Assembly: GCA_947589005.1 (NCBI GenBank) | Contig: CANPZO010000002.1 | Location: forward strand, 7,713-71,712 | Reading direction: 5' to 3' | DNA length: 64,000 nucleotides | DNA from: an uncultured Clostridia bacterium | Lineage (GTDB): Bacteria; Bacillota; Clostridia; UMGS1883 | Shown: positions 3,189 to 52,515 of the stretch, piece by piece | Numbering within the stretch: position 1 is the first letter of the stretch | Layout of the letters: every line of letters begins with the position of its first letter | The notes under the pieces: model-generated | Told to the model about the DNA's origin: nothing | Seen by the model: only the letters and a program-made list of their open reading frames with translations | Databases searched by the model: none | Translations under genes and position numbers: made by a program

Positions 3189-3313
3189 CTTTGTTGCGGT
3201 ATTGTAGTAGGGAAAAACTGATGTCGTTATAGAAATTTTCAATAGCTCATGCACCAAAGCTCCTTTCAGATATATATCATTACTTTGATATTATCAGAAA
3301 GGAGTTTTTTATT

Positions 3314-9312: not shown

Positions 9313-9441
9313 TGTGTCTTATTGCGGTATTGTAGTAGGGGAAATGTGATGTTGTTATAGGATTTTTCAATCGCTCATGCACCAAAGCTCCTTTCAGATA
9401 TATATCATTACTTTGATATTATCAGAAAGGAGTTTTTTATT

Positions 9442-15784: not shown

Positions 15785-15892
15785 GAAAGTCAGTGCGAAA
15801 ATGGAGCGGCGTGGACAGCCGTTCCGTTTTTTATGGCTCATTATCGTCGCCCTTAATTTCATTCAATTCATGAACCGTTTTCTTACCCGGCT

Positions 15893-15940
15893 TCAACCTT
15901 TTGGTTTAACCGTATAAACTTTTTTGAACTTCCCTTTTTT
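15893..15940 (+). promoter_or_regulatory. Conserved upstream element copy 1 (aaccttttggtt...ataaacttttttgaacttcc)
   Basis: One of three copies (also 33066..33112 and 37652..37725), each about 45-50 bp upstream of a start codon. Confidence 0.6.
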
Positions 15941-15991
15941 GATAAGCTGTTGTAAAATATGCTTAGGTAAAGTTTTCAGGGAAGGATGTGG

Positions 15992-23981: not shown

Positions 23982-24027
23982 TAAAAAAGCGACCGGGCGG
24001 CTCAAACTTGCCGGTGAGCCCTATGAA

Positions 24028-24215
24028 TTAGGGGGAAAGCTCGAAAGGGATCTCCCTTTCGATAAAAAACATAAAATCCCAGGGCGTGTACCTGGGATTT
24101 TATACCTTAATCGGGGTAGAAATTAAATTTTATCAAGATAAAATTTAATTTTGTAAGCGCAAGCGCCCGATGCGGAGGGGTTCTCTCAAAGGGGAACCGT
24201 GCGGGTTCCCCTTTG
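24028..24215. repeat. Multi-hairpin intergenic repeat element, copy A (four stem-loops plus conserved single-stranded motifs)
   Basis: Matches the reverse complement of 34331..34512. Loops and linkers are conserved ('gggcgtgtacc', 'ataccttaatcgggg', 'gtaagcgcaagcgcccgatgcgga') while the stems differ in sequence but stay complementary. Confidence 0.7.
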
Positions 24216-24216
24216 A

Positions 24217-24609
24217 TTAAAACTTTATTTCCTCCGGCGGGGCGGTGAAGGACGAGAAAACCGCCGTGGCGTCCTTGAAATACAGAACCTCGGTGTTGTC
24301 GTCGTCGGGGGAGTACATGGCCTGAAGATCGGGATAGCTCTCGAGCAGGTGGGCCTTGGCCTCCCTGCGGTCGTCCCGCACAAGTGTGCCCGAAACGCGG
24401 AGCCACTTTTCGCCGTTAAAAGCGCAAAGCTCCGCCTTGGGGTTAGCTTGAATTTGCTTCGACACGGCCTTTGCCTTGCCGGTCTGAATGTAAAGCTTAC
24501 CCTCGAAAATGTCCACCGTACCGAAGGGGCGCACCCTCGGCTGGTCCCCCTCCGCCGTGGCCATATAGTAGGTTCCGCAGGCTTTCAGAAATTCATAAAC
24601 CTTTTCCAT
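24217..24609 (-). CDS. Pyridoxamine 5'-phosphate oxidase-like FMN-binding protein (general stress protein 26 family)
   Basis: 'MEKVYEFLKACGTYYMATAEGDQPRVRPFGTV' is a typical PNPOx-like N-terminus. 130 aa. Confidence 0.75.
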   Translation of the reverse strand: MEKVYEFLKACGTYYMATAEGDQPRVRPFGTVDIFEGKLYIQTGKAKAVSKQIQANPKAELCAFNGEKWLRVSGTLVRDDRREAKAHLLESYPDLQAMYSPDDDNTEVLYFKDATAVFSSFTAPPEEIKF

Positions 24610-24771
24610 AAATCATACCTCCATATTTGTTGTATTATCATTATACAAAATTTAAGTTGAAAAATCAAGCGCGAAATGAAAAATCTCACACAATCCTCAC
24701 ATTTTCCTCATAAATTTTTAACAAATATGTTGTACAATAAAAACAGAAATTCGTAACGGGCGGGAAAAAAT

Positions 24772-25437
24772 ATGAAGATGTTGATTGTTGACGACGACAG
24801 GCATTTGAGAAAGCTTGTTTATACATACGCCGGGGCCGAGGGCTTCGACTGTGTACAAACGGGCAGTGGGGCCGAGGCGATAACGCTTGTGAGGAACAAT
24901 AAATTTGATATAATCATACTCGACATAATGATGCCCGGCCTTGACGGGTTTGAAACTTTGGCCGAAATGCGCAAATATTCCCGGGCGCCGGTGATAATGC
25001 TGACGGCCAGAAGCGAGGAATACGACAAGCTGCGGGGCTTTGAGCTGGGGGCCGACGATTATGTGGTAAAGCCATTCAGCCCCCAGGAGCTGATGGCGAG
25101 GGTCAACGCCATACTCCGGCGCACCAAGGGCGAGCTGGCCCCGGAGCTGCGCTTCGGCGGGCTTTACATTTCAGAGGCCGCCAGGAGCGTGTATATTGAC
25201 GGCAAAAGCGTGGATCTGCCGCCCAAGCAGTTTGACCTCCTGCTGACCCTGGCAAAAAGCAGGGGAGCGGTGCTCAATCGGGAACACCTCATAGAATTGG
25301 TTTGGGGCTATGATTTCATAGGCTACAGCCGGACGGTTGATACCCATATAAAGGAGCTCAGGGACAATCTGGGCAAATATCGGGATATGATACAGACCGT
25401 GTGGGGAGTTGGATATAAATTTGAATACAAAGAATAG
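24772..25437 (+). CDS. OmpR-family response regulator
   Basis: Receiver 'MKMLIVDDD...DIIILDIMMPGLDGFE' and a winged-helix C-terminus. Confidence 0.9.
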   Translation: MKMLIVDDDRHLRKLVYTYAGAEGFDCVQTGSGAEAITLVRNNKFDIIILDIMMPGLDGFETLAEMRKYSRAPVIMLTARSEEYDKLRGFELGADDYVVKPFSPQELMARVNAILRRTKGELAPELRFGGLYISEAARSVYIDGKSVDLPPKQFDLLLTLAKSRGAVLNREHLIELVWGYDFIGYSRTVDTHIKELRDNLGKYRDMIQTVWGVGYKFEYKE

Positions 25438-26854
25438 AAGGCTTCTGCCGGGAATGACTCTGCGCCTGTGGCTGATTATGATGCTGCTGGTGGTGTTCAC
25501 CGTGGGCTTCATGTGGACGGTGCAGATTGTCGTATTGGAAAGGAGCCACATAACCTCCGAAGAAAAAGAAGTGGATGACGGCCTCGCCTCGGTGAAGGGC
25601 CGCTTGGAAAGCGAGGACCTGGAGGGCAGCGATCTGCTGGCCTACCTTGGTATGAAGGTTGGAGAAAAGCTGGTTATTTCCGGCAGCGACGGCGAGCTGA
25701 TATCCATATACTCCAACGGCCACCCGGTGGACATGGCTCAAGAGCCCGAGGAAAACTTTGTGTGGCGGATGCTGCAAAGCAGTGAATGTTACGGTGATAT
25801 TCTGGCGCACCGCTCTTTCAGCTGCGAGGAAAGATACAAGGGCCGCGTTTACGCATATGAGGCGGGAGTGCCGGTGACCTACGGCGGAAAGGAAGCGTAC
25901 CTCATCGTGATACGCTCCTTTGGGACCCTCTATAACATAATCGACATAAACCGCAGACATCTGGTAGTGCTGAGCGTATTGCTGACGCTGGCGTCGGCGC
26001 TGCTGGCGGCGCTGCTGGCACGGCGCTTTGTGAAGCCTATCAAAAAAATAAAGACCTCGGTGGACGAGCTGGCGAAGGGCAATCTCATTGATGTGCCGGA
26101 GCTGAAGATGAATGACGAGCTGGGCCGGCTTTCCAAGTCCGTAAAGGAGCTGGGCGTGAACCTCCGCCGAGTGGATAAGCTCCGCAAGGAGGTCATAGCG
26201 AACGTGTCTCACGAGCTCCGTTCGCCTCTTGCTCTCATCGGCGGCTATGCGGAAATGGTGAGGGACATAGACTGGAAGGACGAAAAAAAGCGGAACGAGG
26301 ATTTGAACCTCATAGTGAGCGAGTCCAAGCGCATGAGCGAGATGGTCAGCGATATTCTGGACTATTCACAGCTGCAAGCGGGCTATTTAAAGCTGAATTG
26401 CGACCGTTATGACCTTTTGGATATAGCCGAGGCGGAAATCGGGCGCTGCGGCGCGGAGGCCGCCCGGCATGAAATAAACATAAAGCTCAATACCGAGCTC
26501 AGCGAGTTGACGGTGTACGCCGACGCCGCAAAGCTCTGTCAGGTCATAAGGAACCTTTTGTACAACGCCATAAACCACACCGAAAACGGCGGCGAGATTG
26601 AGGTTAAGATTTCCGTCGATGAAAAGGGCGTGTTATTTGAAGTCAAAAACCCCGGCGAACCAATTCCGGAAGACGAAAGGGCCATTATTTGGGAGCGTTA
26701 CCAGCGCAGCCAGCATCAGGGCGGGCGAAGTGCCGGTACCGGCATAGGGCTTTCGATAGTCAGCACCATTCTTGAGGCCCACGGCGCGACTTACGGCGTG
26801 GACTGCGACGGAGGCATAACGGATTTTTGGTTCAGGCTCGACAGCGAAAATTGA
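25409..26854 (+). CDS. Sensor histidine kinase (TM, HAMP, HisKA, HATPase)
   Basis: H-box 'NVSHELRSPL'. ATPase motifs 'YNAINHT' and 'GTGIGLSIV'. The start may be the internal ATG near 25454. Confidence 0.85.
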   Translation: MDINLNTKNRRLLPGMTLRLWLIMMLLVVFTVGFMWTVQIVVLERSHITSEEKEVDDGLASVKGRLESEDLEGSDLLAYLGMKVGEKLVISGSDGELISIYSNGHPVDMAQEPEENFVWRMLQSSECYGDILAHRSFSCEERYKGRVYAYEAGVPVTYGGKEAYLIVIRSFGTLYNIIDINRRHLVVLSVLLTLASALLAALLARRFVKPIKKIKTSVDELAKGNLIDVPELKMNDELGRLSKSVKELGVNLRRVDKLRKEVIANVSHELRSPLALIGGYAEMVRDIDWKDEKKRNEDLNLIVSESKRMSEMVSDILDYSQLQAGYLKLNCDRYDLLDIAEAEIGRCGAEAARHEINIKLNTELSELTVYADAAKLCQVIRNLLYNAINHTENGGEIEVKISVDEKGVLFEVKNPGEPIPEDERAIIWERYQRSQHQGGRSAGTGIGLSIVSTILEAHGATYGVDCDGGITDFWFRLDSEN

Positions 26855-26918
26855 CGCTTTACATTTCAGGGAAAGTGTGGTACAATTTTTATAGGTATAT
26901 TAAAAAGGAGGTTTTTAT

Positions 26919-28352
26919 ATGAAAACATTGAACGCAAAAAGGCTGATCGCCTTTGCGGTGGCCGTGGCGGTGATCTGCCTGGGCTTCGGCCTTTACGCCT
27001 GGCACAGCGGCCGTCCCGTGATGGACACGGCGCAGGCGGCGGACGCGGGCACGGTGATCAAGCTGCAAATCGGCAGCCCCACCATGACCGTCAACGGGGC
27101 GGAGCAGGAGATCGACCCCGGCAGAGGAACGGCGCCCATCATTCAGGATAACCGGACGCTGCTCCCAATTCGGGCGGTCATCGAGGCCCTGGGCGGCAGC
27201 GTGACCTGGGATCAGGAAACTCAGACGGTTATGCTGGCGTATAAGGGCGACATAATCACCATGGTCATCGGCAGCACCTCGGCCTATATCAACGAGGACG
27301 CCCAGACCCTTGACGTGGCCCCCGTCATAATCGACGGGCGCACCATGCTGCCCATACGCTTTGTGGCGGAGGGCTTCAAGCTGGGCGTTGACTGGGACGG
27401 CGAGACCCGGATCGTCACCGTGACCGCGTCCGCGCCGGAGGGACACGCCACCAATGACGCCGACGCCCCGACGGTGTACATGACGACGAGCATCACCCCG
27501 GAGGCCCTTGTCGCCATATATGAGAAGCTGGGCTTTGAACCCCAGGGCAACGTCGCGGTGAAGATGTCCACCGGCGAGCCGCCAAACAGCAACTATTTAA
27601 GACCGGAGCTTATCGGCGACTTGGTTAAAAAGGTTGACGGTACAATCGTTGAGTGCAACACCGCCTACGGCGGCAGCCGCTCCAATACCGCCATGCATAA
27701 ACAAGTTATAGAGGATCACGGTCTTAACGCCATATCAAAGAACGGTGTCGCTGACATTATGGACGAGGACGGTTCCCTCGTAATCCCCGTACCCACGCCC
27801 GAAAACGGCAAGTCAACCATTACCGAGGACTATGTGGGCGCTCACCTCGCCAACTATGACAGCCTAATCTCGCTGGCCCACTTCAAGGGTCACGCAATGG
27901 CGGGCTACGGCGGAGCCATAAAGAATATGTCAATCGGCATCGGCTCCACCGAGGGCAAGTGCTATATCCATTCCGCCGGACAGAGCCACACCTCGCCCTG
28001 GGGCGGCGATCAGGACAAATTCCTTGAATCCATGGGCGACGCCACCAGCGCCGTTGTCAATCAGTTTGACGGACGGGTGGTATATATCAACGTGATGAAC
28101 CGGCTGTCCGTGGACTGCGACTGCGACGGCAATCCCGCCGAGCCGGATATGCACGACATCGGTATACTGGCCTCCTATGACCCGGTGGCTTTGGATCAGG
28201 CGTGTCTTGACCTCGTATATGCTCAAAAGGACGGCGACGGCAAGTCTCTCGTCCAGCGCATCGAGAGCCGCAACGGTCTCCACACCCTCGAGCACGCCGA
28301 GGAAATAGGGCTTGGAAGCAGAACGTACAATTTGGTCAGCATAGATAACTAA
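26919..28352 (+). CDS. Secreted or membrane-anchored protein: Cu-amine-oxidase-N repeats plus DUF362 domain
   Basis: N-terminal anchor 'LIAFAVAVAVICLGFGLYAW'. Cu_amine_oxidN1 'LQIGSPTMTVNGAEQEID...LLPIRAVIEALGGSVTWD'. DUF362-like 'IVECNTAYGGSRS...LAHFKGHAMAGYGGAIKNMSIGIGS...DCDCDGNP'. Paralog of 38466..40205. Confidence 0.75.
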   Translation: MKTLNAKRLIAFAVAVAVICLGFGLYAWHSGRPVMDTAQAADAGTVIKLQIGSPTMTVNGAEQEIDPGRGTAPIIQDNRTLLPIRAVIEALGGSVTWDQETQTVMLAYKGDIITMVIGSTSAYINEDAQTLDVAPVIIDGRTMLPIRFVAEGFKLGVDWDGETRIVTVTASAPEGHATNDADAPTVYMTTSITPEALVAIYEKLGFEPQGNVAVKMSTGEPPNSNYLRPELIGDLVKKVDGTIVECNTAYGGSRSNTAMHKQVIEDHGLNAISKNGVADIMDEDGSLVIPVPTPENGKSTITEDYVGAHLANYDSLISLAHFKGHAMAGYGGAIKNMSIGIGSTEGKCYIHSAGQSHTSPWGGDQDKFLESMGDATSAVVNQFDGRVVYINVMNRLSVDCDCDGNPAEPDMHDIGILASYDPVALDQACLDLVYAQKDGDGKSLVQRIESRNGLHTLEHAEEIGLGSRTYNLVSIDN

Positions 28353-28427
28353 GCTTGACAGAACCAATAAAAAAGAGTATAATTCAGGTAGTACAAAATT
28401 AATATTTAATATAAGGAGGAAAACAAA

Positions 28428-28781
28428 ATGGCATGTTTTATCGTACCAACGGCGGAGGCAATCGTAACGACGGTTGTAAAGAAATCTACGGACAAAAAGG
28501 AAACGCGTAATCCCTTCATCAAACGGCTGAACTGGCTTAACAATATGCTTTGGGGCGGCAGCGCGCTCCTCGCTTTCGAGCACGTTTGGCACGGGGAGGT
28601 TACGCCCTGGTTCCCGTTCCTGACCAACGCGGCGACGCCCGCAAGCACGGCCGCGATGCTGGGAGAAATGGCGACGTCCGGCGTGGGCATGGCGCTCTTG
28701 GTTACGGCGGTATGGGCCGGAATTGCCGCCGCTGCAAACGCGATAGAAAAACGCCCTGTAAGCGCGGAATTGCAGGCATAA
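28428..28781 (+). CDS. Small predicted membrane protein
   Basis: RBS AAGGAGG. Hydrophobic segments. Confidence 0.5.
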   Translation: MACFIVPTAEAIVTTVVKKSTDKKETRNPFIKRLNWLNNMLWGGSALLAFEHVWHGEVTPWFPFLTNAATPASTAAMLGEMATSGVGMALLVTAVWAGIAAAANAIEKRPVSAELQA

Positions 28782-28785
28782 ACGA

Positions 28786-29094
28786 ATGACGCTTTTAATA
28801 ACGGTTTTCGCGGCCGTCACGGTAACGGTGATTTGGTACAACACCGCGGGCAGAATGAAGCTGGGGACGCTGGCGCTGATGCTTTGGGGCGCGGCGTTGA
28901 TGTGGCTTGTTGACGCTGTCGCGGAATACATAGAAGTCGGGGCGGAGTATTTTACTCCCGCCCCGGCGGATATGCTGAACGACGCTTATCTCGGACTGTC
29001 CGTGATTGCCCTCGCGCTGGTGATATGGCTTGCGGTCGTCTTGTACAAAGACCCGAAGGGCCGGATAAGAAAGGCCATACAAAAAGAAAAATAG
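28786..29094 (+). CDS. Small predicted membrane protein
   Basis: Three hydrophobic helices. Adjacent to the previous small gene. Confidence 0.5.
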   Translation: MTLLITVFAAVTVTVIWYNTAGRMKLGTLALMLWGAALMWLVDAVAEYIEVGAEYFTPAPADMLNDAYLGLSVIALALVIWLAVVLYKDPKGRIRKAIQKEK

Positions 29095-29103
29095 GGGATA
29101 GGG

Positions 29104-29150
29104 CGGTTTTGTTTGTAGGCTGAAACCGCCCTTCTTTTCAGGAGCAAACA
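29104..29150 (+). terminator. Intrinsic terminator
   Basis: 'agggcggttttgtttgtaggctgaaaccgcccttcttttc'. Confidence 0.55.
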
Positions 29151-29164
29151 GGAGCAAAGAAAAA

Positions 29165-29956
29165 ATGAACGCAAAATATGAGAAGCTAAAAAATTATCTG
29201 AAAGACCTTGGCTCGGTTGCCGTGGCCTTTTCCGGCGGCGTGGATTCTACCTTTCTGTTAAAGACCGCCCATGACGTTTTGGGCGACAAGGCGGTCGCCG
29301 TGACCGCCCGGTCCTGTTCCTTTCCGGAGCGGGAGCTCGGCGAGGCAAAGCGGTTTTGCGCCCGGGAGGGAATTCGCCATATTGTGGTGCAATCGGAAGA
29401 GCTGAGCATCGAGGGCTTCGCGGACAATCCGAAAAACCGCTGTTACCTCTGCAAAACGGAACTGTTCAAAAAAATGCGTGAAGCGGTCGCCTCCCTTGGG
29501 ATAGAGCATATCGCGGAGGGGTCCAATATGGACGACAACGGCGATTACCGCCCCGGACTTATCGCGGTTCGGGAGCAGGGCATCAAAAGTCCGCTGCGAT
29601 ACGCGGAGCTTAATAAAAATGAAATACGGGAATTATCCAAGGAGCTTGGTTTAGATACATGGAATAAGCAGTCCTTCGCCTGCCTTTCCTCCCGCTTTGT
29701 TTACGGTGAGAAAATTACGGAGGAAAAGCTGAACATGGTGGACAGGGCCGAACAATACCTGCTGGATTTGGGATTTACTCAGGTGCGGGTGCGGATCCAC
29801 GGGAAAATGGCGCGAATAGAAATTAACAGGGACGAATTCCCCAAAATGATAGGCGTGTCCCAACAGGTTTACGAGTATCTGAAAAATTTGGGCTTTACCT
29901 ATGTGTCGCTGGACCTTTGCGGCTACCGCACGGGGAGCATGAACGAGGTGCTGTGA
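29165..29956 (+). CDS. larE: LarE-like ATP-dependent sulfur-transferase (PP-loop ATP pyrophosphatase) of nickel-pincer cofactor biosynthesis
   Basis: PP-loop 'AVAFSGGVDSTFLLKTAHD'. Conserved 'NPKNRCYLCK'. Immediately followed by larB. Confidence 0.75.
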   Translation: MNAKYEKLKNYLKDLGSVAVAFSGGVDSTFLLKTAHDVLGDKAVAVTARSCSFPERELGEAKRFCAREGIRHIVVQSEELSIEGFADNPKNRCYLCKTELFKKMREAVASLGIEHIAEGSNMDDNGDYRPGLIAVREQGIKSPLRYAELNKNEIRELSKELGLDTWNKQSFACLSSRFVYGEKITEEKLNMVDRAEQYLLDLGFTQVRVRIHGKMARIEINRDEFPKMIGVSQQVYEYLKNLGFTYVSLDLCGYRTGSMNEVL

Positions 29957-29957
29957 A

Positions 29958-30719
29958 ATGGAGCAAAAGGAATTAAAACAGCTCTTGCGGGACGTGGCGG
30001 AGGGAAGGCTCTCCGCGGACGACGCGCTGCTGAAATTCAGGGCCCAGCCCTTTGAGGATTTGGGCTTTGCCAAAATTGACCACCACAGGAGCGTGCGTCA
30101 GGGAGCCGCGGAAGTGATTTACGGAGCGGGAAAAACGCCGGAGCAGATTGCGGAGATTGCAAAGCGGCTCCGCTTCGCCGGACAGAAAACGGTTTTGATT
30201 ACCCGAATGAGCAAGGAGGCGGCGGAGGTCACCGGCGGCGAGCTTCCGCTGACCTATCACGAGATAGCGCGGATAGGAATTGTGGGCGAAATGCCGGAGC
30301 CCGATACGGACTCGGCCGTCGTCATTGCCAGCGGCGGCACCAGCGATATGCCCGTCGCGGAGGAGGCCGCGCTTACCGCTCAGGCGCTCGGGAACAAGGT
30401 GACGCGGCTTTACGACGTGGGCGTCGCGGGCCTGCACAGATTGCTGGCGCATACGGAGGAGATCATGCGGGCAAAGGTGATTGTCGCGGTCGCCGGCATG
30501 GAGGGCGCGCTGGCCAGCGTGATAGGCGGCCTGGCGGACTGCCCCGTTGTCGCCGTCCCCACAAGCGTCGGTTACGGAGCGTCTTTCGGCGGCCTGTCCG
30601 CGCTGCTGTCCATGCTCAATTCCTGCGCAAGCGGCGTCAGCGTGGTAAACATTGACAACGGTTTCGGCGCCGGTTATCTTGCGAGTATGATAAATCACAT
30701 GGGAGGGACAAACCGGTGA
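29958..30719 (+). CDS. larB: LarB-like pyridinium-3,5-biscarboxylic acid mononucleotide synthase (PurE-like)
   Basis: The N-terminal extension plus PurE-like 'KVIVAVAGMEGALASVIGGLADCPVVAVPTSVGYG' is typical of LarB. Confidence 0.75.
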   Translation: MEQKELKQLLRDVAEGRLSADDALLKFRAQPFEDLGFAKIDHHRSVRQGAAEVIYGAGKTPEQIAEIAKRLRFAGQKTVLITRMSKEAAEVTGGELPLTYHEIARIGIVGEMPEPDTDSAVVIASGGTSDMPVAEEAALTAQALGNKVTRLYDVGVAGLHRLLAHTEEIMRAKVIVAVAGMEGALASVIGGLADCPVVAVPTSVGYGASFGGLSALLSMLNSCASGVSVVNIDNGFGAGYLASMINHMGGTNR

Positions 30720-30845
30720 AAATTTTATACATGGACTGCGCGATGGGCGCTTCCGGCGATATGCCGGCCGCTTGGCCCGAATTGCACTGGAACGCGAAAT
30801 CAGCCTTGAAGAGGCCGGACGGCCGCTGGAAAGCGAGAGTTAAAA
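30716..30845 (+). pseudogene. larC: LarC remnant: only about 20 N-terminal codons recognisable, the rest deleted or frameshifted
   Basis: GTGA overlap with the larB stop. 'VKILYMDCAMGASGDM' matches the canonical LarC N-terminus (M.ILY.DC..G.SGDM). The frame then collapses and the next gene starts at 30846. Confidence 0.5.
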
Positions 30846-31751
30846 ATGATTTGGAACGTTTTAAGGCGTGAGTTCGTCTACCTCTGGTACTACTTTGAGG
30901 TGCAGCTCCGTCAGATAGTGCCCTATTGGGCGCTGGGTATAGTGCTGGGCTCGGTAATCTCCGTGTTCGGCAAGGAAAAAATACACAAAATGGTGGTCGC
31001 AATTCAGGACAAGCACCTTGGTCTGTTCGGGCTGATACCGGCGGCTTTGCTGGGCATCGCCTCGCCCCTGTGTATGTACGGGACAATCCCGCTGGCGGCG
31101 TCCTTTTCCCAAAAGGGCCTGCGGGACGACTACCTGGCCGCCTTCATGATGTGCAGCGTGCTGTTAAATCCCCAGCTTCTCATCTACAGCGCGGCTCTGG
31201 GGCCCACGGCCCTGACGGTGCGCTTCGTGAGCTGCTTCCTCTGCGGAGTGGTGGCGGGACTGTTGATACGGTGCTTTTTTAAGGACAAAAGCTTCTTCAA
31301 CTTCGAGGGCTTTTCCGAGCGTGCCAGCCGTGATACCGACCCAAATATGCTCCTGCGGCTGCTTAAAAACATTGGCCGCAACATCAAGGCCACGGGCAAG
31401 TGGTTTTTGCTGGGCATATTCCTTACGGCGCTGTATCAAAGGTACGTCCCGCAGGAGGCTTTCGCCGCCCTTTTCGGCAAAAACGAAGGCTTCGGGGTGC
31501 TGATGGCGGCGACGATAGGCGTGCCGCTGTACGTCTGCGGCGGCGGGACGATACCGCTGCTCCAGGAATGGCTCATGAACGGCATGAGCATGGGCGCGGC
31601 GGCGTCATTTATGGTGACCGGCCCGGCCACGAAGATAACCAACCTTGGCGCGCTTAAAATCGTGCTTGGGATAAGGAATTTCATTCTCTACATAGCTTAT
31701 GTGATAGCGTTTTCGCTGGCGGCGGGACTGCTGGTGGATCTGATTGTTTAG
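30846..31751 (+). CDS. Predicted permease (DUF318/YraQ-like two-repeat permease family)
   Basis: Multiple TM helices. Motifs 'IASPLCMYGTIPLAASF' and 'GVPLYVCGGGTIPLL' typical of DUF318 permeases. Confidence 0.65.
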   Translation: MIWNVLRREFVYLWYYFEVQLRQIVPYWALGIVLGSVISVFGKEKIHKMVVAIQDKHLGLFGLIPAALLGIASPLCMYGTIPLAASFSQKGLRDDYLAAFMMCSVLLNPQLLIYSAALGPTALTVRFVSCFLCGVVAGLLIRCFFKDKSFFNFEGFSERASRDTDPNMLLRLLKNIGRNIKATGKWFLLGIFLTALYQRYVPQEAFAALFGKNEGFGVLMAATIGVPLYVCGGGTIPLLQEWLMNGMSMGAAASFMVTGPATKITNLGALKIVLGIRNFILYIAYVIAFSLAAGLLVDLIV

Positions 31752-31764
31752 GGAGGAGAAGCTC

Positions 31765-32661
31765 ATGCACAACCATCACCTTGAAACCTTCATTAGGGTT
31801 GCCGACAGCGGCAGCTTTTCAAAGGCCGCCGACGTCATGTTCATTTCCCCCACCGCGGTTATCAAGCAGATAGATTTGCTTGAGCAGGAGCTGGGGCTTA
31901 AGCTCATGGAGCGCAGCTCTCGGGGCGTTAGCCTCACCCCCGCCGGTGAGTCAGTGTATAACGACGCCAAGTACATGATACAGTATTCCCACGACTCCAT
32001 CGTCCGCGCTCAAAACGCCATGGAAAAAAAGGAAAAGGTCATACGCATCGGCGTGTCGCTAATGACCCCGGCCCAATTCGTGCTTTCGCTGTGGCCGAGG
32101 ATCAAGGAGATATGCCCGGGGCTGACGTTCCGTCTTGTGCCCTTTGACAACACTCCGGCCAACGCCCGGGAGATACTGAAAAACCTTGGCACCAACATCG
32201 ACATTGTGGCCGGCTGGTACGACGAGGATTTCCTCAGCAGCCGGGGCTGCGCGGCCCTTCGCCTTGAGGACGAGCCTATCTGCTGCGCGGTGAGCGTTAA
32301 CCACCGTCTCGCGGGCAATAAGCGGCTCAAGGTGGAGGACTTGGCGGGCGAAAACCTTATGCTCATCCGCCGGGGCTGGAACCGCTACACCGACGCTCTG
32401 CGGGAGCATTTGTGGATGAACTTTCCCGACCTCAAGGTGACCGACGTGCCTTTCTTCGACGTGAGCGTATTCAACCGCTGCGAGGAGGAGGGCGGCGTCC
32501 TCGTCGCTTTCGGCAAGTGGGAAAGCGTCCACCCGCTGCTCAAAATAATCCCCGTGGACTGGGGCTTTACCATTCCCTTCGGTATATTGCACTCGCCGAG
32601 GCCGTCAAGCGTGGTGAGCGAGTTTTTGAGCGCGGTCAAAGATGTGTGTTCAATTTCATAA
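31765..32661 (+). CDS. LysR-family transcriptional regulator
   Basis: RBS GGGAGGAG. HTH 'LETFIRVADSGSFSKAADVMFISPTAVIKQIDLLEQELGLKLM'. Confidence 0.85.
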   Translation: MHNHHLETFIRVADSGSFSKAADVMFISPTAVIKQIDLLEQELGLKLMERSSRGVSLTPAGESVYNDAKYMIQYSHDSIVRAQNAMEKKEKVIRIGVSLMTPAQFVLSLWPRIKEICPGLTFRLVPFDNTPANAREILKNLGTNIDIVAGWYDEDFLSSRGCAALRLEDEPICCAVSVNHRLAGNKRLKVEDLAGENLMLIRRGWNRYTDALREHLWMNFPDLKVTDVPFFDVSVFNRCEEEGGVLVAFGKWESVHPLLKIIPVDWGFTIPFGILHSPRPSSVVSEFLSAVKDVCSIS

Positions 32662-33065
32662 CCTTTAGGGCTGTAAAAAATAGTGCAGACCTGCGTCGTC
32701 ACAAAATCGGCATCGCCGTTTTGCGGGGGGTTGCCGCCTTCGGCGGCTTATATGTCCGTCTTTGTATGACGGCGGCTTGAAGGCAAGCCGCCCTACGCCC
32801 TACTGTAACAGTTACGTATAGGGCGGGCTGCCCTCAGCCCGCCGCGGCCCGCATGACGGGCTTTGCCCCGACGCAGACAGTGTGATTTTCGTTCGTAGTT
32901 CAATGGCATAAAATGAGAAAATTCGCTCGTAAGGGCGAATTTTCTACATTAATGCAACTATTTTATTTTTATAGACTAATATTACAACACTAAAATTTGC
33001 CTTAAATTAAGGAATTAAGCCCTTGAACGATCTGCGCCATTTTTTTACGGCCCCCTTTTTAGCTT

Positions 33066-33112
33066 AAACCTTTTGGTTCAAAGGCATAAACTTTTTTGCA
33101 CTTCCGTTTTGG
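33066..33112 (+). promoter_or_regulatory. Conserved upstream element copy 2, with extended -10 'tgctacaat' downstream
   Basis: 'aaaccttttggttcaaaggcataaacttttttgcacttccgttttgg' lies about 50 bp upstream of the Fe-ADH start. Confidence 0.6.
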
Positions 33113-33160
33113 TAAAAACCGTGCTACAATGAAATCAACAACAAAAGGGGGCAGTATAAT

Positions 33161-34330
33161 ATGGACAACTTCATTTTTGAAAACCGCACCAAGGTATATT
33201 TCGGCAAGGGCTGCGTCAAGGAGTTTCTTGTCTGCGAGGCGAAAAAATACGGCGGCAAGGTGATGCTGGCTTACGGCGGAGGCTCGATAAAAAGAAACGG
33301 CATCTACGACGAGATAACCTCCCTGCTCCGTGACGCCGATTTGGAGACGGTGGACTTCCCCGGCATCATGGCAAACCCCACCTATGAAAAGGTGCTGGAG
33401 GGTGCGCGTCTTGCCCGGGAGGAAAACGTCGGCCTCATCCTCGGAATTGGCGGAGGCTCGGTCATGGACTGCTGCAAGGCGATTTCTCTGGCGGCGGTCT
33501 ACGACGGCGATATATGGAAGGACTACTGGGCGAGGAACGGGGTCATCGGCTTTGAGCCCCTGCCTCTGGGCGTGGTCGTTACCGTGACCGGCACCGGCAG
33601 CGAAATGAACGGCGGGACCGTCATAACCAACGAGGCACTCAAGGTCAAAACGGGCCGGGATTATCCCGCCTGCAACCCCCGCTTTGCCCTTTTGGACCCG
33701 ACCTACACCTTCACGGTACCGCCTTTACAGATGGCCGCGGGCGGCTTTGACACCCTGAGCCATATAATGGAGATATATTTCAGCAAGCCAGACGAGGACA
33801 ATGTGTCCGACGATATTGCCGAGGCTTTGATGCGCGGGGTTATAAAAAACCTCCCCGCCGCCCTGAAGAACCCGGAGGACTACACCGCCCGCAGCAACCT
33901 TATGTGGCTGGCAACGATGGCGGAGAACCGCGTTATCAAGCTGGGGAAACGGACGGACTTCCAAGCCCATCAGATCGAGCATCAGCTTGGGGCCTACACC
34001 GACTGCAACCACGGCTGCGGTTTGGCGGTCATAACCCCGCCCTATTACCGGCGCATCTACGAGGCCGGCATATGCAAATTTGTGCGCTTCGCCACCAACG
34101 TGTGGGGTATCTCTACCGTGGGTAAAAATTCCGCCCAGGTGGCAAGGGAAGGCATCGACGCTTTGGAGAAATTCATCAGGGACATCGGCCTACCCTCAAG
34201 GCTCCGCGATATCGGCGTCGCCGAGGACGCGCCCCTTGACGAGATCGCCCAAAGCTGCAATATCTCACCCGGCAGCTACAGACAGCTCACCCACGAGGAG
34301 ATAGCGGAAATATTAAAAAGCAATTATTAA
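33161..34330 (+). CDS. Iron-containing alcohol dehydrogenase (Fe-ADH; butanol or propanediol dehydrogenase family)
   Basis: 'GGGSVMDCCKAISLAA' glycine-rich NAD motif. Metal-binding His motifs. 389 aa. Confidence 0.85.
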   Translation: MDNFIFENRTKVYFGKGCVKEFLVCEAKKYGGKVMLAYGGGSIKRNGIYDEITSLLRDADLETVDFPGIMANPTYEKVLEGARLAREENVGLILGIGGGSVMDCCKAISLAAVYDGDIWKDYWARNGVIGFEPLPLGVVVTVTGTGSEMNGGTVITNEALKVKTGRDYPACNPRFALLDPTYTFTVPPLQMAAGGFDTLSHIMEIYFSKPDEDNVSDDIAEALMRGVIKNLPAALKNPEDYTARSNLMWLATMAENRVIKLGKRTDFQAHQIEHQLGAYTDCNHGCGLAVITPPYYRRIYEAGICKFVRFATNVWGISTVGKNSAQVAREGIDALEKFIRDIGLPSRLRDIGVAEDAPLDEIAQSCNISPGSYRQLTHEEIAEILKSNY

Positions 34331-34512
34331 TTCGCGGGGACAACCCGCGCGGTTTTCCCCGCGGAACCCTTTTCCGCATCGGGCGCTTGCGCTTACGGGA
34401 ATTTGTCTGCGGACAAATTCCCTACCCCGATTAAGGTATCAAAAGTCCGGTACACGCCCGTACTTTTGATAAATTTAATCGAAAGGGGGTTCCCTTTCGA
34501 GCATTCCCCCTA
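34331..34512. repeat. Multi-hairpin intergenic repeat element, copy B (inverted relative to copy A)
   Basis: See copy A. It sits between the Fe-ADH stop and the hydrolase RBS. Confidence 0.7.
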
Positions 34513-34558
34513 AGTATATAAAAGTTTAATATTTTAATATAAAATGGAGGTAATAAAA

Positions 34559-35686
34559 ATGAAAACACAGAGAACATTACTGGCTTTGGCTCTGGCCGGA
34601 GCACTGGGGGCCATGTCCCTTTCCGGCTGCACCGCTCAAAACGAAACCGCGAAGGAGCCTGAAACAAATCAAGAGGTACAGTCTCAGGCGGAAATCCCGG
34701 AGGGCGCTTTAGTGATCGCCGAGCAGGGCATTTTCTCCGCCGGCGGCACCACAATTACCAGCGAGGGCACATTTAATCCGGAGGATCAGTGGGAGGCCAC
34801 AGGCGCCGGGCAGACCCTTCACGCCGACCACGCAAACGTGCTCTACCAAATACCCGCCGATGAGACGGGCCTCCCCATGGTATTTCTCCACGGATACGGC
34901 CAGTCCCGTATGGGTTGGATGACCACTCCTGACGGACGGGAGGGCTGGTCGGATATGTTCCTGCGCAAGGGACACAGCGTATTCCTGATAGATGAGCCCC
35001 GGCGCGGCGAGGCCGGAATGACTACCGTAAGCGGAAATATCAGCACCACCACGCTTGACCAGCGTTGGTACACCCAGTTCCGTATCGGACGCTGGGAAAA
35101 CGGAAAGTCCGTTGTAAACGAGGGCTCTCAATTCCCCAACGACGATGAGTCCGTGGATCAGTTTTTCCGCCAAATGACGCCGGACACGGGCATGACCTCC
35201 GATATGGGCGGCGACTTTGATATGGAAACGGTGTCCAAGGCCGTTGCGGCCACCATTGACGAGGTTTACGAGCGCACCGGAAAGAATTCCATACTTGTGA
35301 CCCACTCTCAGGGCGGCGGCCCGGGCTGGGCGGCGGCCGCATATACCGACCACATAGCCGCCATCGTCGCCATTGAGCCCGGCGGAGCTCCGGCCGCGGA
35401 CAGCGCCGAATTTACGGCGGTGCTTGAAAAGAAGATACCCGTTACCATGTACTTTGGCGACTACATCAACAACGGCGACCCGGCCATTCAGGCCACGGCA
35501 ATGTGGCAGGGTATGCGCGGCGCCTGCTACGCCTTTGAGGAGGCTTACAATGCTCAGGGCGGCAACTGCACCGTTATCGATCTGCCAGAGGAGGGTATCA
35601 CCGGCAACGACCACTTCATGTTCCAGGATTTGAATAATGACGTGATCGCCGACCATATTCAAAATTGGATAGAGGAGAATGTAAAA

Positions 35687-35689
<3 letters not shown>
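34559..35689 (+). CDS. Secreted lipoprotein alpha/beta-hydrolase
   Basis: Signal and lipobox 'LGAMSLSGC'. Motifs 'MVFLHGYGQSRMGW' and 'LVTHSQGGGPGW' (GxSxG). Confidence 0.75.
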
Positions 35690-37391
<1,702 letters not shown>

Positions 37392-37651: not shown

Positions 37652-37725
37652 ACTGCTTAAACCAAAAGGTTTCTTTGAACCTTTTGGTTTGGCGGCATAA
37701 ACTTTTTTGCACTTCACTTTTTTGA
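37652..37725 (+). promoter_or_regulatory. Conserved upstream element copy 3, with a perfect 14-bp inverted duplication of the aacc-tttt-ggtt hairpin and extended -10 'tgataaaat'
   Basis: 'aaaccaaaaggtttctttgaaaccttttggtttggcggcataaacttttttgcacttcac'. Confidence 0.6.
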
Positions 37726-37767
37726 AAAAAAGTGATAAAATTAAATTAATCTAAGGAGGCAGAAGCT

Positions 37768-38465: not shown

Positions 38466-40205
38466 ATGAAAAATCTCAAAAAAATCACGGCCTTTGCCCT
38501 GAGCCTTGCCGTACTCTGTCTCGGCTTCGGGCTGCTTGTCCGCACGCAAAAGACCACCACGGCCTACGCCGCGGACACCGGCTACGAGACCACTGACCCT
38601 GACGCTCCCGAGGTGCTGTTCACCTCGGAGATAACCTCCGAGTCGCTGCTCCGTATATATAAAGCCCTTGGCTTTGACGCGGAGGGCGAGGTGGCCGTCA
38701 AGATGTCCACCGGCGAGCCGCCAAACAGCAACTATCTCCGTCCCGAGCTGATAAAAGACCTTATCCAGGAGGTGGACGGCACCATCGTCGAGTGCAACAC
38801 CGCCTACGGCGGACGGCGCTCCAGCACCGCCATGCACCGGCAGGTGATAGAGGACCACGGCTTTCTCGACGTGGCAAAGGCCGTTGACATAATGGACGAA
38901 GACGGGGACATCACCATTCCCGTTCCCACGCCTGCCACAGGCGCGCGTTCGACCATAACCACCAACCGCGTGGGCGCCCATCTTACGAACTACGACAGCC
39001 TTATCTCGCTGGCCCACTTCAAGGGCCACGCCATGGCGGGATACGGCGGAGCTATCAAAAATATGTCAATCGGCATCGGCTCGGTGGCGGGCAAGTGCCT
39101 TATCCACACGGGCGGCAGATCCAGTACAAGTCCCTGGGGCGGCAACCAGAACGCCTTTCTTGAATCCATGGGCGACGCCACAAGCAGCGTGGTAAATCAG
39201 TTTGACGGAAAAGTCGTTTATATCAACGTGATGAACCGGTTGTCAATAGACTGCGACTGCGACGGCAACCCCTCCGAGCCGGATATGCACGACATCGGCA
39301 TACTGGCCTCCTATGACCCGGTGGCGCTGGATCAGGCTTGCCTTGACCTGATTTCTCAGGCCGACGGCAACACGAGATTTTTAAACCGTGTCAACGGTCA
39401 AAACGGCTTCCACACCCTTGAACACGCAGAGGAGATAGGTCTCGGCAGCCGAAGCTACCGCATACGGGATATCGACGCCGAGCCGGTGGCCGTCACCATG
39501 AGCTATGACAACGGACAGCTTACGGTTTCGGGCCTTGACGGCGAGGCGGCCCTCATCAGAGTTTCATATTCCGACGGCGCTTTGGCGGGAGTCGATATTT
39601 CCTCCGTTACCAACGGGACGCGGAACATGGAGGCCGAGGGCGGCGACAGGCTTTTCCTCTGGAACAGTCTCATGTCCATGCAGCCCCTGTGCCCGTCGGT
39701 GACCGTGCCCGACGGCGGGCCCAAGACCCTCGTGGTCTACTACTCCGCCACCAACACTACCGAGGGAGTGGCCGAAAAGATAGCCGCCTACACCGGCGCG
39801 GATATTTTCGAGATCACTCCGTCCGACCCCTACACCGACGACGACCTTGACTGGACGGACAATAACAGCCGCGTTGTGGCCGAGCATGACGACCCCGACG
39901 GCCGCCATGTGGAGCTTGAGACTACCGACGTTCCCGACTGGACAAGCTACGACACCGTATATATCGGCGCGCCCATATGGTGGGGCGAGTTCTCGTGGGT
40001 AATCGACGATTTTGTAAAGAACAACGATTTCACGGGTAAAACAGTTATACCTTTCTGCACCTCAATGTCCTCCGGTTTGGGCGACAGCGGGCGGCACGTC
40101 GCTGAAATGACGTCCTCCGGCAACTGGTTGGACGGCAAACGCTTTGGCACACGGGCAAGCGAAGCAGAGGTACAGGAATGGATAGACAGCTTGGGGCTTA
40201 ATTAA
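38466..40205 (+). CDS. Secreted or anchored protein: DUF362 domain plus recurrent YS.G.L/F.W..PL module plus C-terminal extracellular flavodoxin-like domain
   Basis: RBS GGAGGCGAG. Anchor 'ITAFALSLAVLCLGFGLLV'. DUF362 paralog of 26919 ('IVECNTAYGGRRS...DCDCDGNPSEPDMHDIG'). The C-terminal 145 aa are nearly identical to the 35687 flavodoxin domain. Confidence 0.75.
   Translation: MKNLKKITAFALSLAVLCLGFGLLVRTQKTTTAYAADTGYETTDPDAPEVLFTSEITSESLLRIYKALGFDAEGEVAVKMSTGEPPNSNYLRPELIKDLIQEVDGTIVECNTAYGGRRSSTAMHRQVIEDHGFLDVAKAVDIMDEDGDITIPVPTPATGARSTITTNRVGAHLTNYDSLISLAHFKGHAMAGYGGAIKNMSIGIGSVAGKCLIHTGGRSSTSPWGGNQNAFLESMGDATSSVVNQFDGKVVYINVMNRLSIDCDCDGNPSEPDMHDIGILASYDPVALDQACLDLISQADGNTRFLNRVNGQNGFHTLEHAEEIGLGSRSYRIRDIDAEPVAVTMSYDNGQLTVSGLDGEAALIRVSYSDGALAGVDISSVTNGTRNMEAEGGDRLFLWNSLMSMQPLCPSVTVPDGGPKTLVVYYSATNTTEGVAEKIAAYTGADIFEITPSDPYTDDDLDWTDNNSRVVAEHDDPDGRHVELETTDVPDWTSYDTVYIGAPIWWGEFSWVIDDFVKNNDFTGKTVIPFCTSMSSGLGDSGRHVAEMTSSGNWLDGKRFGTRASEAEVQEWIDSLGLN
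39770..40197 (+). repeat. Near-identical (about 99%) duplication of 36090..36520 (flavodoxin-like domain coding sequence)
   Basis: Direct comparison. The antisense ORFs 36270..36473 and 39947..40150 translate identically. Confidence 0.85.
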
Positions 40206-41339: not shown

Positions 41340-41412
41340 CAGCTTATTTCCCGCTCCAAAGCCCCTTTCAGATATATCATTACTTTGATATTATCAGAAA
41401 GGAGCTTTTTAG
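41340..41412 (+). repeat. Relic third copy of the 5'-UTR/RBS-hairpin region that precedes the 122-aa genes (no gene follows)
   Basis: 'ccaaagcccctttcagatatatcattactttgatattatcagaaaggagcttttta' matches 3255-3312 and 9383-9440. Followed by an immediate stop. Confidence 0.7.
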
Positions 41413-52428: not shown

Positions 52429-52515
52429 GCCGATGTGATGGAATTGGTAGACGTAGTGGACTCAAAATCCACCGGTAGCGATACCGTGCCGGTTCGAGTC
52501 CGGCCATCGGCACCA
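52429..52515 (+). tRNA. tRNA-Leu (anticodon CAA)
   Basis: Cloverleaf readable: acceptor GCCGATG/CATCGGC plus CCA, anticodon loop CUCAAAA, long variable arm, T-arm GGTTCGAGTCC. Confidence 0.85.

Follow-up and report, generated by a model that had tools for sequence, protein, structure and literature searches.

Structured small interspersed repeats are known from Firmicutes. In the Bacillus cereus group, bcr1 is a transcribed, non-coding interspersed repeat of ~155 bp; close strains carry it at positions that are not conserved, 5-bp direct repeats flank each copy, and compensatory changes maintain a multi-stem RNA structure with two stem-loops (Delihas 2011, PMC3184786). The pneumococcal repeats BOX, RUP and SPRITE are intergenic and shorter than 200 bp; they are highly folded and occur preferentially at the 3' ends of genes and between convergent genes. 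BOX has a modular structure. Terminal inverted repeats and target duplications are found in BOX and RUP; SPRITE is similar to a Rho-independent terminator, and neither inverted repeats nor a target duplication are convincing in it. One pneumococcal genome carries from 30 (SPRITE) to 125 (BOX) copies of each family (Croucher 2011, PMC3049150). Here, a structured element was studied that occurs in two inverted copies, A and B, in a 64,000-nucleotide stretch (hereafter, the window) of contig CANPZO010000002.1 from an uncultured Clostridia bacterium. The pairing of its multi-hairpin fold was shown to be under selection, and the element was shown to be a discrete block that is present or absent between near-identical strains. 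It is a previously uncatalogued structured element that no Rfam model covers, and its closest known kind appears, by analogy, to be the bcr1/BOX/SPRITE-type repeats of Firmicutes.

An earlier examination of the window (hereafter, the sequence-only reading) had reported two inverted copies of an intergenic multi-hairpin element, and both were recovered. On the displayed strand (+ for copy A and - for copy B), ~190 nt of the two copies could be aligned pairwise with 79% identity, and covariance-model matches were obtained at 24029-24218 (+; 202.8 bits) and 34331-34512 (-; 202.2 bits). The motifs ATACCTTAATCGGGGTAG and GTAAGCGCAAGCGCCCGATGCGGA, 18 and 24 nt long, respectively, each occurred exactly twice in the 64 kb, the expected count being 0.00-0.03, and GGGCGTGTACC was also common to both copies. 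The fold of copy A had an energy of -82.5 kcal/mol and that of copy B an energy of -83.5 kcal/mol, with z values of -6.9 and -5.4 against dinucleotide shuffles. The arms of hairpin P3 were GAAATTAAATTTTAT/ATAAAATTTAATTTT in one copy and GGGAATTTGTC/GACAAATTCCC in the other, each pair being self-complementary; hairpins P2 and P5 likewise differed between A and B yet kept their self-complementarity.

To obtain further copies, a 20-mer from the element core was scanned against 185,579 species-representative genomes. Five loci were found (L001-L005; L012-L024 are other loci used for comparison), and the entire element was present in all of them. They belonged to four metagenome-assembled genomes (MAGs) of uncultured Clostridia, four loci being in rabbit-gut 'Lapin' bins and one in 'C.9_7'. 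The family therefore comprised seven distinct copies in five genomes, the window's genome included. L001, from a sister species, was orthologous to copy B, and 93.9% identity was found in the flanks, while the copies in L002-L005 lay at unrelated genomic sites, L004 and L005 being paralogues within one MAG. Conservation outside the window's genome, on which the sequence-only reading depended, was provided by these five further copies. A covariance-model search, which that reading had suggested, recovered both copies and no third in the 64-kb window and one copy in each of the related loci (99 kb). The element was also found in independent assemblies from ENA, NCBI and Logan. In JGI metagenomes, a degenerate two-motif pattern gave three matches, all due to chance and without the element; two scans of IMG/VR gave 0 matches, and a BLAST search of plasmid and phage collections gave no match and no sign of phage or plasmid origin. 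The contigs of L002 (1-24) and L024 (1-30) terminate exactly at the element or its flanking duplication, as would be expected of a repeat at which short-read assemblies break; copy numbers based on MAGs are therefore probably too low.

From 5' to 3', the element consisted of a G-run, the P1 hairpin, an A-rich linker, the P2 hairpin, ACCUUA, the 5' strand of a junction helix, the P3 hairpin, a mini-hairpin, GCGGAAAAGG and the P5 hairpin. Instead of the four stem-loops described earlier, there were thus five hairpins plus a junction helix. This helix, AUCGGG/CCCGAU, was invariant and closed a three-way junction. The conserved motifs that had been described as shared and unpaired were indeed shared, but some of them were paired, namely AUCGGG with CCCGAU. 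GCGU was found in the P2 loop of all seven copies, the mini-hairpin was GC-GCAA-GC with a GNRA cap (GCAA), and P5 had a conserved apex plus one covarying base. ATCGGGGTAG was invariant in 7/7 copies, though it lay outside the search pattern. Pairing of the 5' G-run with the region that follows the junction, as a conserved closing helix, was also sought; because the pairings vary among copies, such a helix was left out of the model.

The RNAalifold consensus of the seven copies contained 55 pairs, and double-sided changes were found in 28 of them, including 7 of 13 pairs in P2, 10 of 11 aligned pairs in P3 and 7 of 12 pairs in P5. It was found that 97.5% of the cells were paired, versus 34-57% when the partners were slid by 1-3 columns. 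The covariation score was 0.437, versus 0.153 in shuffles and at most 0.154 in the slid controls, and none of 500 shuffles reached any observed measure. The sequence of P3 was wholly different in copy B, L002, L003 and L004/L005, and its length differed as well. P1 covaried with GCGGGGG/CCCCCGC in L003 and was absent from L002. Two compensatory double substitutions in P2 distinguished L004 from L005, which are in the same MAG. Copy B and its orthologue L001 differed at 2 of ~155 positions outside P3, while the surrounding DNA was 6% diverged, showing purifying selection in place; P3 itself had been swapped wholesale for a hairpin like that of copy A with an inverted loop. The changes in P2 of L004 and L005 and the conservation between copy B and L001 argue for ongoing selection and not for mere inheritance of a palindrome. 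Compensatory covariation above controls, by which a structured RNA under selection is generally recognized, was therefore present in the element, and the compensatory stem changes and selection on RNA or DNA secondary structure proposed from two copies held for seven. The similarity also extended beyond generic terminator hairpins, since the invariant core of the three-way junction persisted when more copies were aligned.

In the window, the parts of the two copies were located as follows.

24018-24028, + strand: 5' extension motif of copy A, GCCCTATGAAT, part of the element.
24029-24215, + strand: structured core of copy A (202.8 bits; fold z -6.9).
24041-24062, + strand: P1 hairpin of copy A, TCGAAAGGG / CCCTTTCGA, placed by helix coordinates and covariation.
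24071-24103, + strand: P2 hairpin of copy A, 13 bp, with the loop GCGTGTA at 24084-24090.
24104-24118, + strand: conserved strand ACCTTA-ATCGGG-GTA of copy A, with the 5' strand of the junction helix at 24110-24115.
24119-24152, + strand: P3 of copy A, a hypervariable 15-bp A/T hairpin with a closing G.U pair in this copy only.
24153-24176, + strand: invariant GTAAGCGCAAGCGCCCGATGCGGA of copy A, with the GC-GCAA-GC mini-hairpin at 24157-24164 and CCCGAT, the 3' strand of the junction helix, at 24166-24171.
24188-24215, + strand: P5 hairpin of copy A, AAAGGGGAACC / GGTTCCCCTTT, with the conserved apex AACC-GYKCG-GGTT, followed by TTTGATT.
34331-34540, - strand: whole inserted block of copy B, 210 nt, as compared with the empty site in L022/L023.
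34513-34540, - strand: A/T-rich 5' extension of copy B, beginning with ATATTAAAATATTAAACTTTTATATACT, which stands in for the GCCCTATG motif.
34331-34512, - strand: structured core of copy B (202.2 bits; fold z -5.4).
34334-34499, - strand: helices of copy B, namely P1 at 34480-34499, P2 at 34437-34471, P3 at 34397-34422 and P5 at 34334-34362.
34378-34431, - strand: junction helix of copy B, 34426-34431 with 34378-34383, and its GCAA mini-hairpin at 34385-34392.

The motif GCCCTATGnAC also preceded the copies in L004 and L005, and a degenerate form, GCCCATAAAC, was found in L002. Copy B and L001 had CTTTTATATAC in its place, and the A/T-rich 5' extension of copy B was ~7 nt shorter in L001. The length of ~185 bp given by the sequence-only reading was therefore too small; the real unit is longer, amounting to 210 nt at site B and including the 5' motif at 24018-24028 in copy A. 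Inspection of the sequences, 190-210 nt long, revealed no conserved open reading frame on either strand, and indels between copies break the frames.

It was demonstrated by comparison of near-identical strains that the element is gained or lost as a block. In L022 and L023, in which the hydrolase is 99% identical to that of the window, the distance from the Fe-ADH stop codon to the hydrolase ribosome-binding site was 18 nt (...ATTATTAA|AAAGTGGAGG...). At this point, the window had 210 extra nt (34331-34540), with which the junction is 228 nt long instead of 18 nt. The site was filled in L001 and in every contig of the window's own strain. It was also filled in L024, which over 4.4 kb shares 99.68% identity with L022; the L024 contig starts inside the element, and its junction looked recombinant, being window-like next to the element and L022-like farther out. 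There was no target duplication at site B. Loss in L022/L023 and gain in the other strains are both compatible with this arrangement.

At three other loci, the element was bracketed by direct repeats. These were 24 nt long in L002 (GCTCCCCTTCGGGGGAGCGATTTG), 13 nt long in L005 (AAAATTCGCCCTT) and 14 nt long with one mismatch in L004 (AATCYCGCTGGGGC), with start-to-start spacings of 215, 225 and 219 nt, respectively. The duplicated words of L002 and L005 did not occur elsewhere in the fetched loci, and no flanking duplication was found at A and L003. Each of the three repeats was part of an intrinsic-terminator hairpin. When the element and one repeat were removed from L004, a canonical terminator was rebuilt (ACAAAAAAUCUCGCUGGGGCGGGAUUUUUUGU, -18.7 kcal/mol), located immediately behind the stop codon of the gene for a FeoB-associated Cys-rich peptide; the same operation on L005 also gave a canonical terminator (-16.0 kcal/mol). 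In L004, 9 of the 14 duplicated nt are at the same time those of the native 3' arm of P5, an arm likewise present in L005, and this junction may therefore reflect microhomology rather than a simple staggered cut. An empty site for L004 was sought via the ECF sigma factor gene, and the only close relative, L021, was a 687-nt contig with a different upstream sequence.

At the block ends set by the empty site and the duplications, no terminal inverted repeats were seen by eye, only internal stems, and no common target motif was found at the junctions. The ends were ragged: 19-30 nt preceded the G-run at three junctions of full-length copies, with a comparable 5' extension in L002, and 0-7 nt followed P5 at the five ends that could be placed, the end in L004 being ambiguous. 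The sequence-only reading had offered a non-coding RNA (ncRNA) family or a REP/BOX-like element; both parts of this were upheld, with dispersed insertion, seen from the empty site and the duplications at three loci, in addition. In L005, a 9-nt unit, AACTGAAAA, was repeated in tandem three to four times at 6287-6314, ~150 nt downstream of the element's terminator.

The element is short and non-coding, has several copies and is present or absent by strain, as is expected of a small interspersed repeat broadly defined. By description, not by sequence, it resembles bcr1 in being a non-coding element of Firmicutes with strain-variable positions, direct repeats and compensatory changes. However, bcr1 has many copies per genome, whereas 2 copies were found here in 64 kb and 1-2 per MAG; the duplications are 13-24 nt long or absent, and the fold comprises five helices, arranged about an invariant three-way junction, instead of two stem-loops. 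Like BOX, RUP and SPRITE, the element is small, highly folded and located at gene ends; it differs in that the inverted repeats of BOX and RUP are missing, that its conserved core is internal and that its copies are very few. BOX is modular, and loss of a module was seen here once (P1 in L002). Orphan ncRNA motifs of gut Clostridia, such as Clostridiales-1 in Rfam, are similarly intergenic, with strong covariation and a function that is not known, but unlike most of them the present element is demonstrably a unit of insertion or deletion.

The Rfam scan suggested earlier was carried out with Rfam 15 (4227 models), and no family matched the element at gathering thresholds. The window's sole match at that level, and its only tRNA, was tRNA-Leu(CAA) at 52429-52515. 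At E<=10, four copies of the element gave sub-threshold matches of 10-26 bits, versus thresholds of 37-195 bits; the families were almost all different for each copy, and rteR (~16 bits) alone turned up in two of the scans.

Several known classes were considered and rejected. REP/BIME sequences are GC-rich palindromes of 20-40 nt with hundreds of copies and a linked RAYT gene; they were ruled out because the present unit is ~200 nt long, has five different helices and occurs twice in the 64-kb window. A classical MITE, or miniature inverted-repeat transposable element, was excluded by the lack of terminal inverted repeats and by a duplication length that is not fixed (24, 14 and 13 nt, and none at B). 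The element is like the PATEs of IS200/IS605 and the guide RNAs of TnpB/IscB (IS605-orfB, HEARO) in being non-coding and hairpin-ended, without inverted repeats and with no target duplication at site B; a structured RNA of ~150-220 nt belongs to those families, and one is proposed for the element. Unlike them, it has no tnpA, tnpB or iscB beside any copy among the neighbours scanned, no Rfam match to these families at E<=10, no conserved target motif and long duplications at three loci. An IS200/IS605-type PATE or a TnpB/IscB guide RNA was therefore rejected, since the junction sequences differ, duplications occur at three loci and there is no associated gene among the neighbours.

The gene neighbourhoods of the copies, assigned by Pfam, were unrelated to one another, and both orientations relative to the neighbours were observed. 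Copy A lies between the gene for a 707-aa esterase (ending at 23981, +) and a PNPOx-like gene (24217-24609, -); the distance from the stop codon of this gene to the P5 end of the copy is 1 nt. Copy B has the Fe-ADH stop codon on one side (the gene ends at 34330) and the hydrolase Shine-Dalgarno sequence on the other, so that on the + strand it is directly upstream of the hydrolase gene. The true ATG of the hydrolase gene is at 34559, as indicated by GGAGG at 34546-34550 and by 376-aa orthologues in databases; the program-listed open reading frame began at 34544. Elsewhere, the contexts were FeoB/ECF sigma (L004), DegV/PGK (L003), a sugar epimerase (L005), PrmA (L002) and Fe-ADH/hydrolase (L001). 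Close homologues of PNPOx in other Clostridia were arranged in compact operons that lack the element. PNPOx orthologues in L016-L020 had ordinary short 3' regions without the element, by which a conserved 3' element of PNPOx was ruled out; L016 diverges from the window right after the PNPOx stop codon, and its context is rearranged, so that it is not a true empty site. The sequence-only reading had placed the copies 3' of PNPOx and Fe-ADH and had called copy B the 5' leader of an operon. The positions were correct, but 'leader' describes a position and not a conserved function, because copy B occupies a junction that is 18 nt long in strains without it, and the element is missing from homologous operons.

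Among the neighbours scanned, no gene for a transposase, RAYT, TnpB or IscB was found beside any copy. The view that A and B are the ends of a composite transposon was not supported: the genes between them are ordinary metabolic and regulatory ones and are shared, with different indels, by L001 and L022.

As the best explanation, it is proposed that the element is a low-copy mobile cassette, the functional product of which is a structured RNA of ~190 nt made from the displayed strand. This explanation is tentative, and a probability of roughly 0.45 is assigned to it. The cassette, ~200-210 bp long and without protein-coding capacity, would come and go as a whole at intergenic positions in a narrow group of uncultured gut Clostridia, several of these positions being in or beside an intrinsic terminator. 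The RNA would end at P5 or at the adjacent host terminator. The stems would need only to pair, leaving P3 free to vary, while the nucleotides of the junction, of the GCGU loop and of the GNRA hairpin would form a sequence-specific contact surface for a partner, which could be either a protein or nucleic acid as the target of the RNA or the machinery that copies the element. Spread might occur by unconventional, imprecise insertion favouring terminator hairpins and by homologous recombination between strains.

We infer that the active form is RNA, that its strand is the displayed one and that it acts in trans. The displayed strand folded better than its reverse complement in 7/7 copies, by 3.9-10.9 kcal/mol, and the consensus energies were -68.3 for the displayed strand versus -63.9 for the opposite one. 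The displayed strand carries the GCAA (GNRA) loop and A-rich linkers, and in most copies a U-run or another terminator lies behind P5. P3 is closed by a G.U pair in copy A and by a G-C pair in the other copies.

Several points weigh against an RNA made from the displayed strand. The evidence for the strand is weak, since it includes one secure wobble pair in seven copies that are not independent, and the sample of known copies (n=7) is small. Five of the seven copies were recovered via one exact 20-mer, and the invariance of this 20-mer is therefore partly by construction. No conserved sigma-70 promoter was found upstream, where the copies have just a -10-like box (TATGnAC/TATATAC) at 2-3 nt from the 5' G-run. 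At the four bounded sites, the blocks carry ~19-30 nt upstream of the core start, and L002 lacks the P1 part. Other points concern the opposite strand. On it, P2 is followed by U5-7 and is terminator-like in A, L002, L004 and L005 (4/7). The P5 end abuts the stop codon of an opposite-strand gene, at a distance of 0-8 nt, in A, B/L001 and L004; in L003 it is ~20 nt from such a codon, beyond a short hairpin. At least copy B is surely transcribed antisense to the preferred strand, because its P5 end abuts the opposite-strand stop codon inside an operon. Finally, hairpin covariation alone is equally compatible with folded single-stranded DNA.

According to a rather unlikely alternative, the element would be mobile at the DNA level, its hairpins and core being read as folded single-stranded DNA by a trans-acting enzyme, with any RNA as a by-product. 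The enzyme could be an HUH/Y1 transposase, as for PATEs and REP/RAYT, or another recombinase. The clean presence or absence at site B, with neither target duplication nor terminal inverted repeats, would fit such an element, as would the location of the P1 and P5 hairpins near both ends, the two orientations in unrelated contexts and the breaks of the L002 and L024 contigs, which are to be expected of a repeat. REP heads have GTAG 5' of the hairpin, and GTAG is found directly 5' of the P3 hairpin here. However, an encoding gene of this kind was absent from the scanned neighbours of the copies, the junctions shared no target tetranucleotide, and the duplications of 13-24 nt at three loci are unexpected for IS200/IS605-type insertion. 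In addition, both ends vary by several nt among copies, the strongest conservation is internal and not terminal, and the GNRA loop and the asymmetry in stability favour RNA.

It is also conceivable, but unlikely, that the element works in cis on the opposite strand, as a mobile module of 3' untranslated or intergenic mRNA regions that stabilizes or terminates the host transcript, like REP/BIME, ERIC or SPRITE. The proximity of P5 to stop codons and the terminator-like P2 described above would be explained by this function, as would the insertions within terminators; the opposite-strand U-run is interrupted at the one site located within an operon (B and L001). Nevertheless, exonuclease blocks and terminators need generic hairpins only, and the invariant three-way junction, the GCGU loop and the 20-mer conserved across species would be left unexplained. 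Moreover, the copies in L005 and L002 do not follow a gene co-directional with the opposite strand, and the fold on that strand is the less stable one in every copy.

It is considered improbable that the element is the bacterial counterpart of a short interspersed element (SINE), a small structured RNA that would be copied to new positions, with a preference for intrinsic terminators, by a reverse transcriptase acting in trans or through template switching at hairpins. Such copying would account for ends that are ragged and lack inverted repeats, for target duplications that vary from 13 to 24 nt and for a conserved, RNA-like core that is internal and not terminal.

A riboswitch or 5' leader of the hydrolase/flavodoxin/aldo-keto-reductase operon, suggested by the position of copy B on the + strand, is very improbable. 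It is effectively refuted by the same hydrolase protein being encoded behind an 18-nt junction without the element. Four other loci, from other Clostridia, with hydrolases 82-87% identical to that of the window, are arranged as compact operons without the element, and the other copies are not upstream of a related, or of any co-directional, gene. Chance likeness of ordinary terminator hairpins, or an assembly artefact, which a hairpin-rich element at gene ends might bring to mind, is already refuted by the exact 18- and 24-nt motifs (expected count, ~0), by the independent ENA, NCBI and Logan assemblies and by covariation far above the controls.

If the fold is that of an RNA, as in the preferred explanation, the element would represent a well-supported class of structured ncRNA from uncultured gut Clostridia, outside the Rfam models. 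The natural filled and empty alleles in near-identical strains would allow its effect on neighbouring genes and its own expression to be read from metatranscriptomes. The mode of insertion fits no standard transposase class, since terminators are split, duplications are of variable length and inverted repeats are absent; this could indicate an undescribed route by which small non-coding genes spread. In practical terms, the element breaks metagenome assemblies and is located inside at least one operon.

Some features of the genes around the copies were also observed. The set of hydrolase, Flavodoxin_4 and aldo-keto-reductase genes next to copy B (34544-37391; compared with L012-L015) showed 72-87% protein identity in shuffled operon arrangements and spans Oscillospiraceae, Oscillibacter and Clostridium beijerinckii, which suggests a horizontally mobile module, possibly of detoxification type. 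Between the two copies, the window lacks at 30771/30772 the gene for a LarC-type nickel-insertion protein that its relatives have, beside an AIRC/LarB-like gene, and at 32665-33054 an HTH_3/TPR regulator gene that in relatives is located between LysR and Fe-ADH; the loci compared were L001:5918-6985, L001:2615-4025 and L022:1543-2619.

Other repeats were found in the window. An intergenic sequence of 75 nt is present in three copies, 71-79% identical (15892-15966, 33064-33138 and 37675-37749), and contains the palindrome TTnAACCTTTTGGTTnnA and promoter-like boxes. The copy at 33064-33138 is just upstream of the Fe-ADH gene, and the others are near the esterase and flavodoxin gene clusters; judging by its sequence, this repeat may be an operator/promoter that the three sites have in common and that is used by one regulator. 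Two stretches of 300+ nt in direct repeat, 99% identical, occur at 36045-36344 and 39722-40021, in or beside Flavodoxin_4-domain genes; they suggest that a duplication or gene conversion took place very recently. Paralogous blocks of greater age, with 71-87% identity, are located at 27445-28213 and 38584-39349. A 40-nt segment ending in the ribosome-binding site ATATATCATTACTTTGATATTATCAGAAAGGAGTTTTTTA was found at 3272-3311, 9400-9439 and 41372-41411 with 98-100% identity. Finally, a run with a period of 15 nt, TTGGnTTTnCCAACn, at 2474-2578 is probably a five-residue repeat in a coding region.

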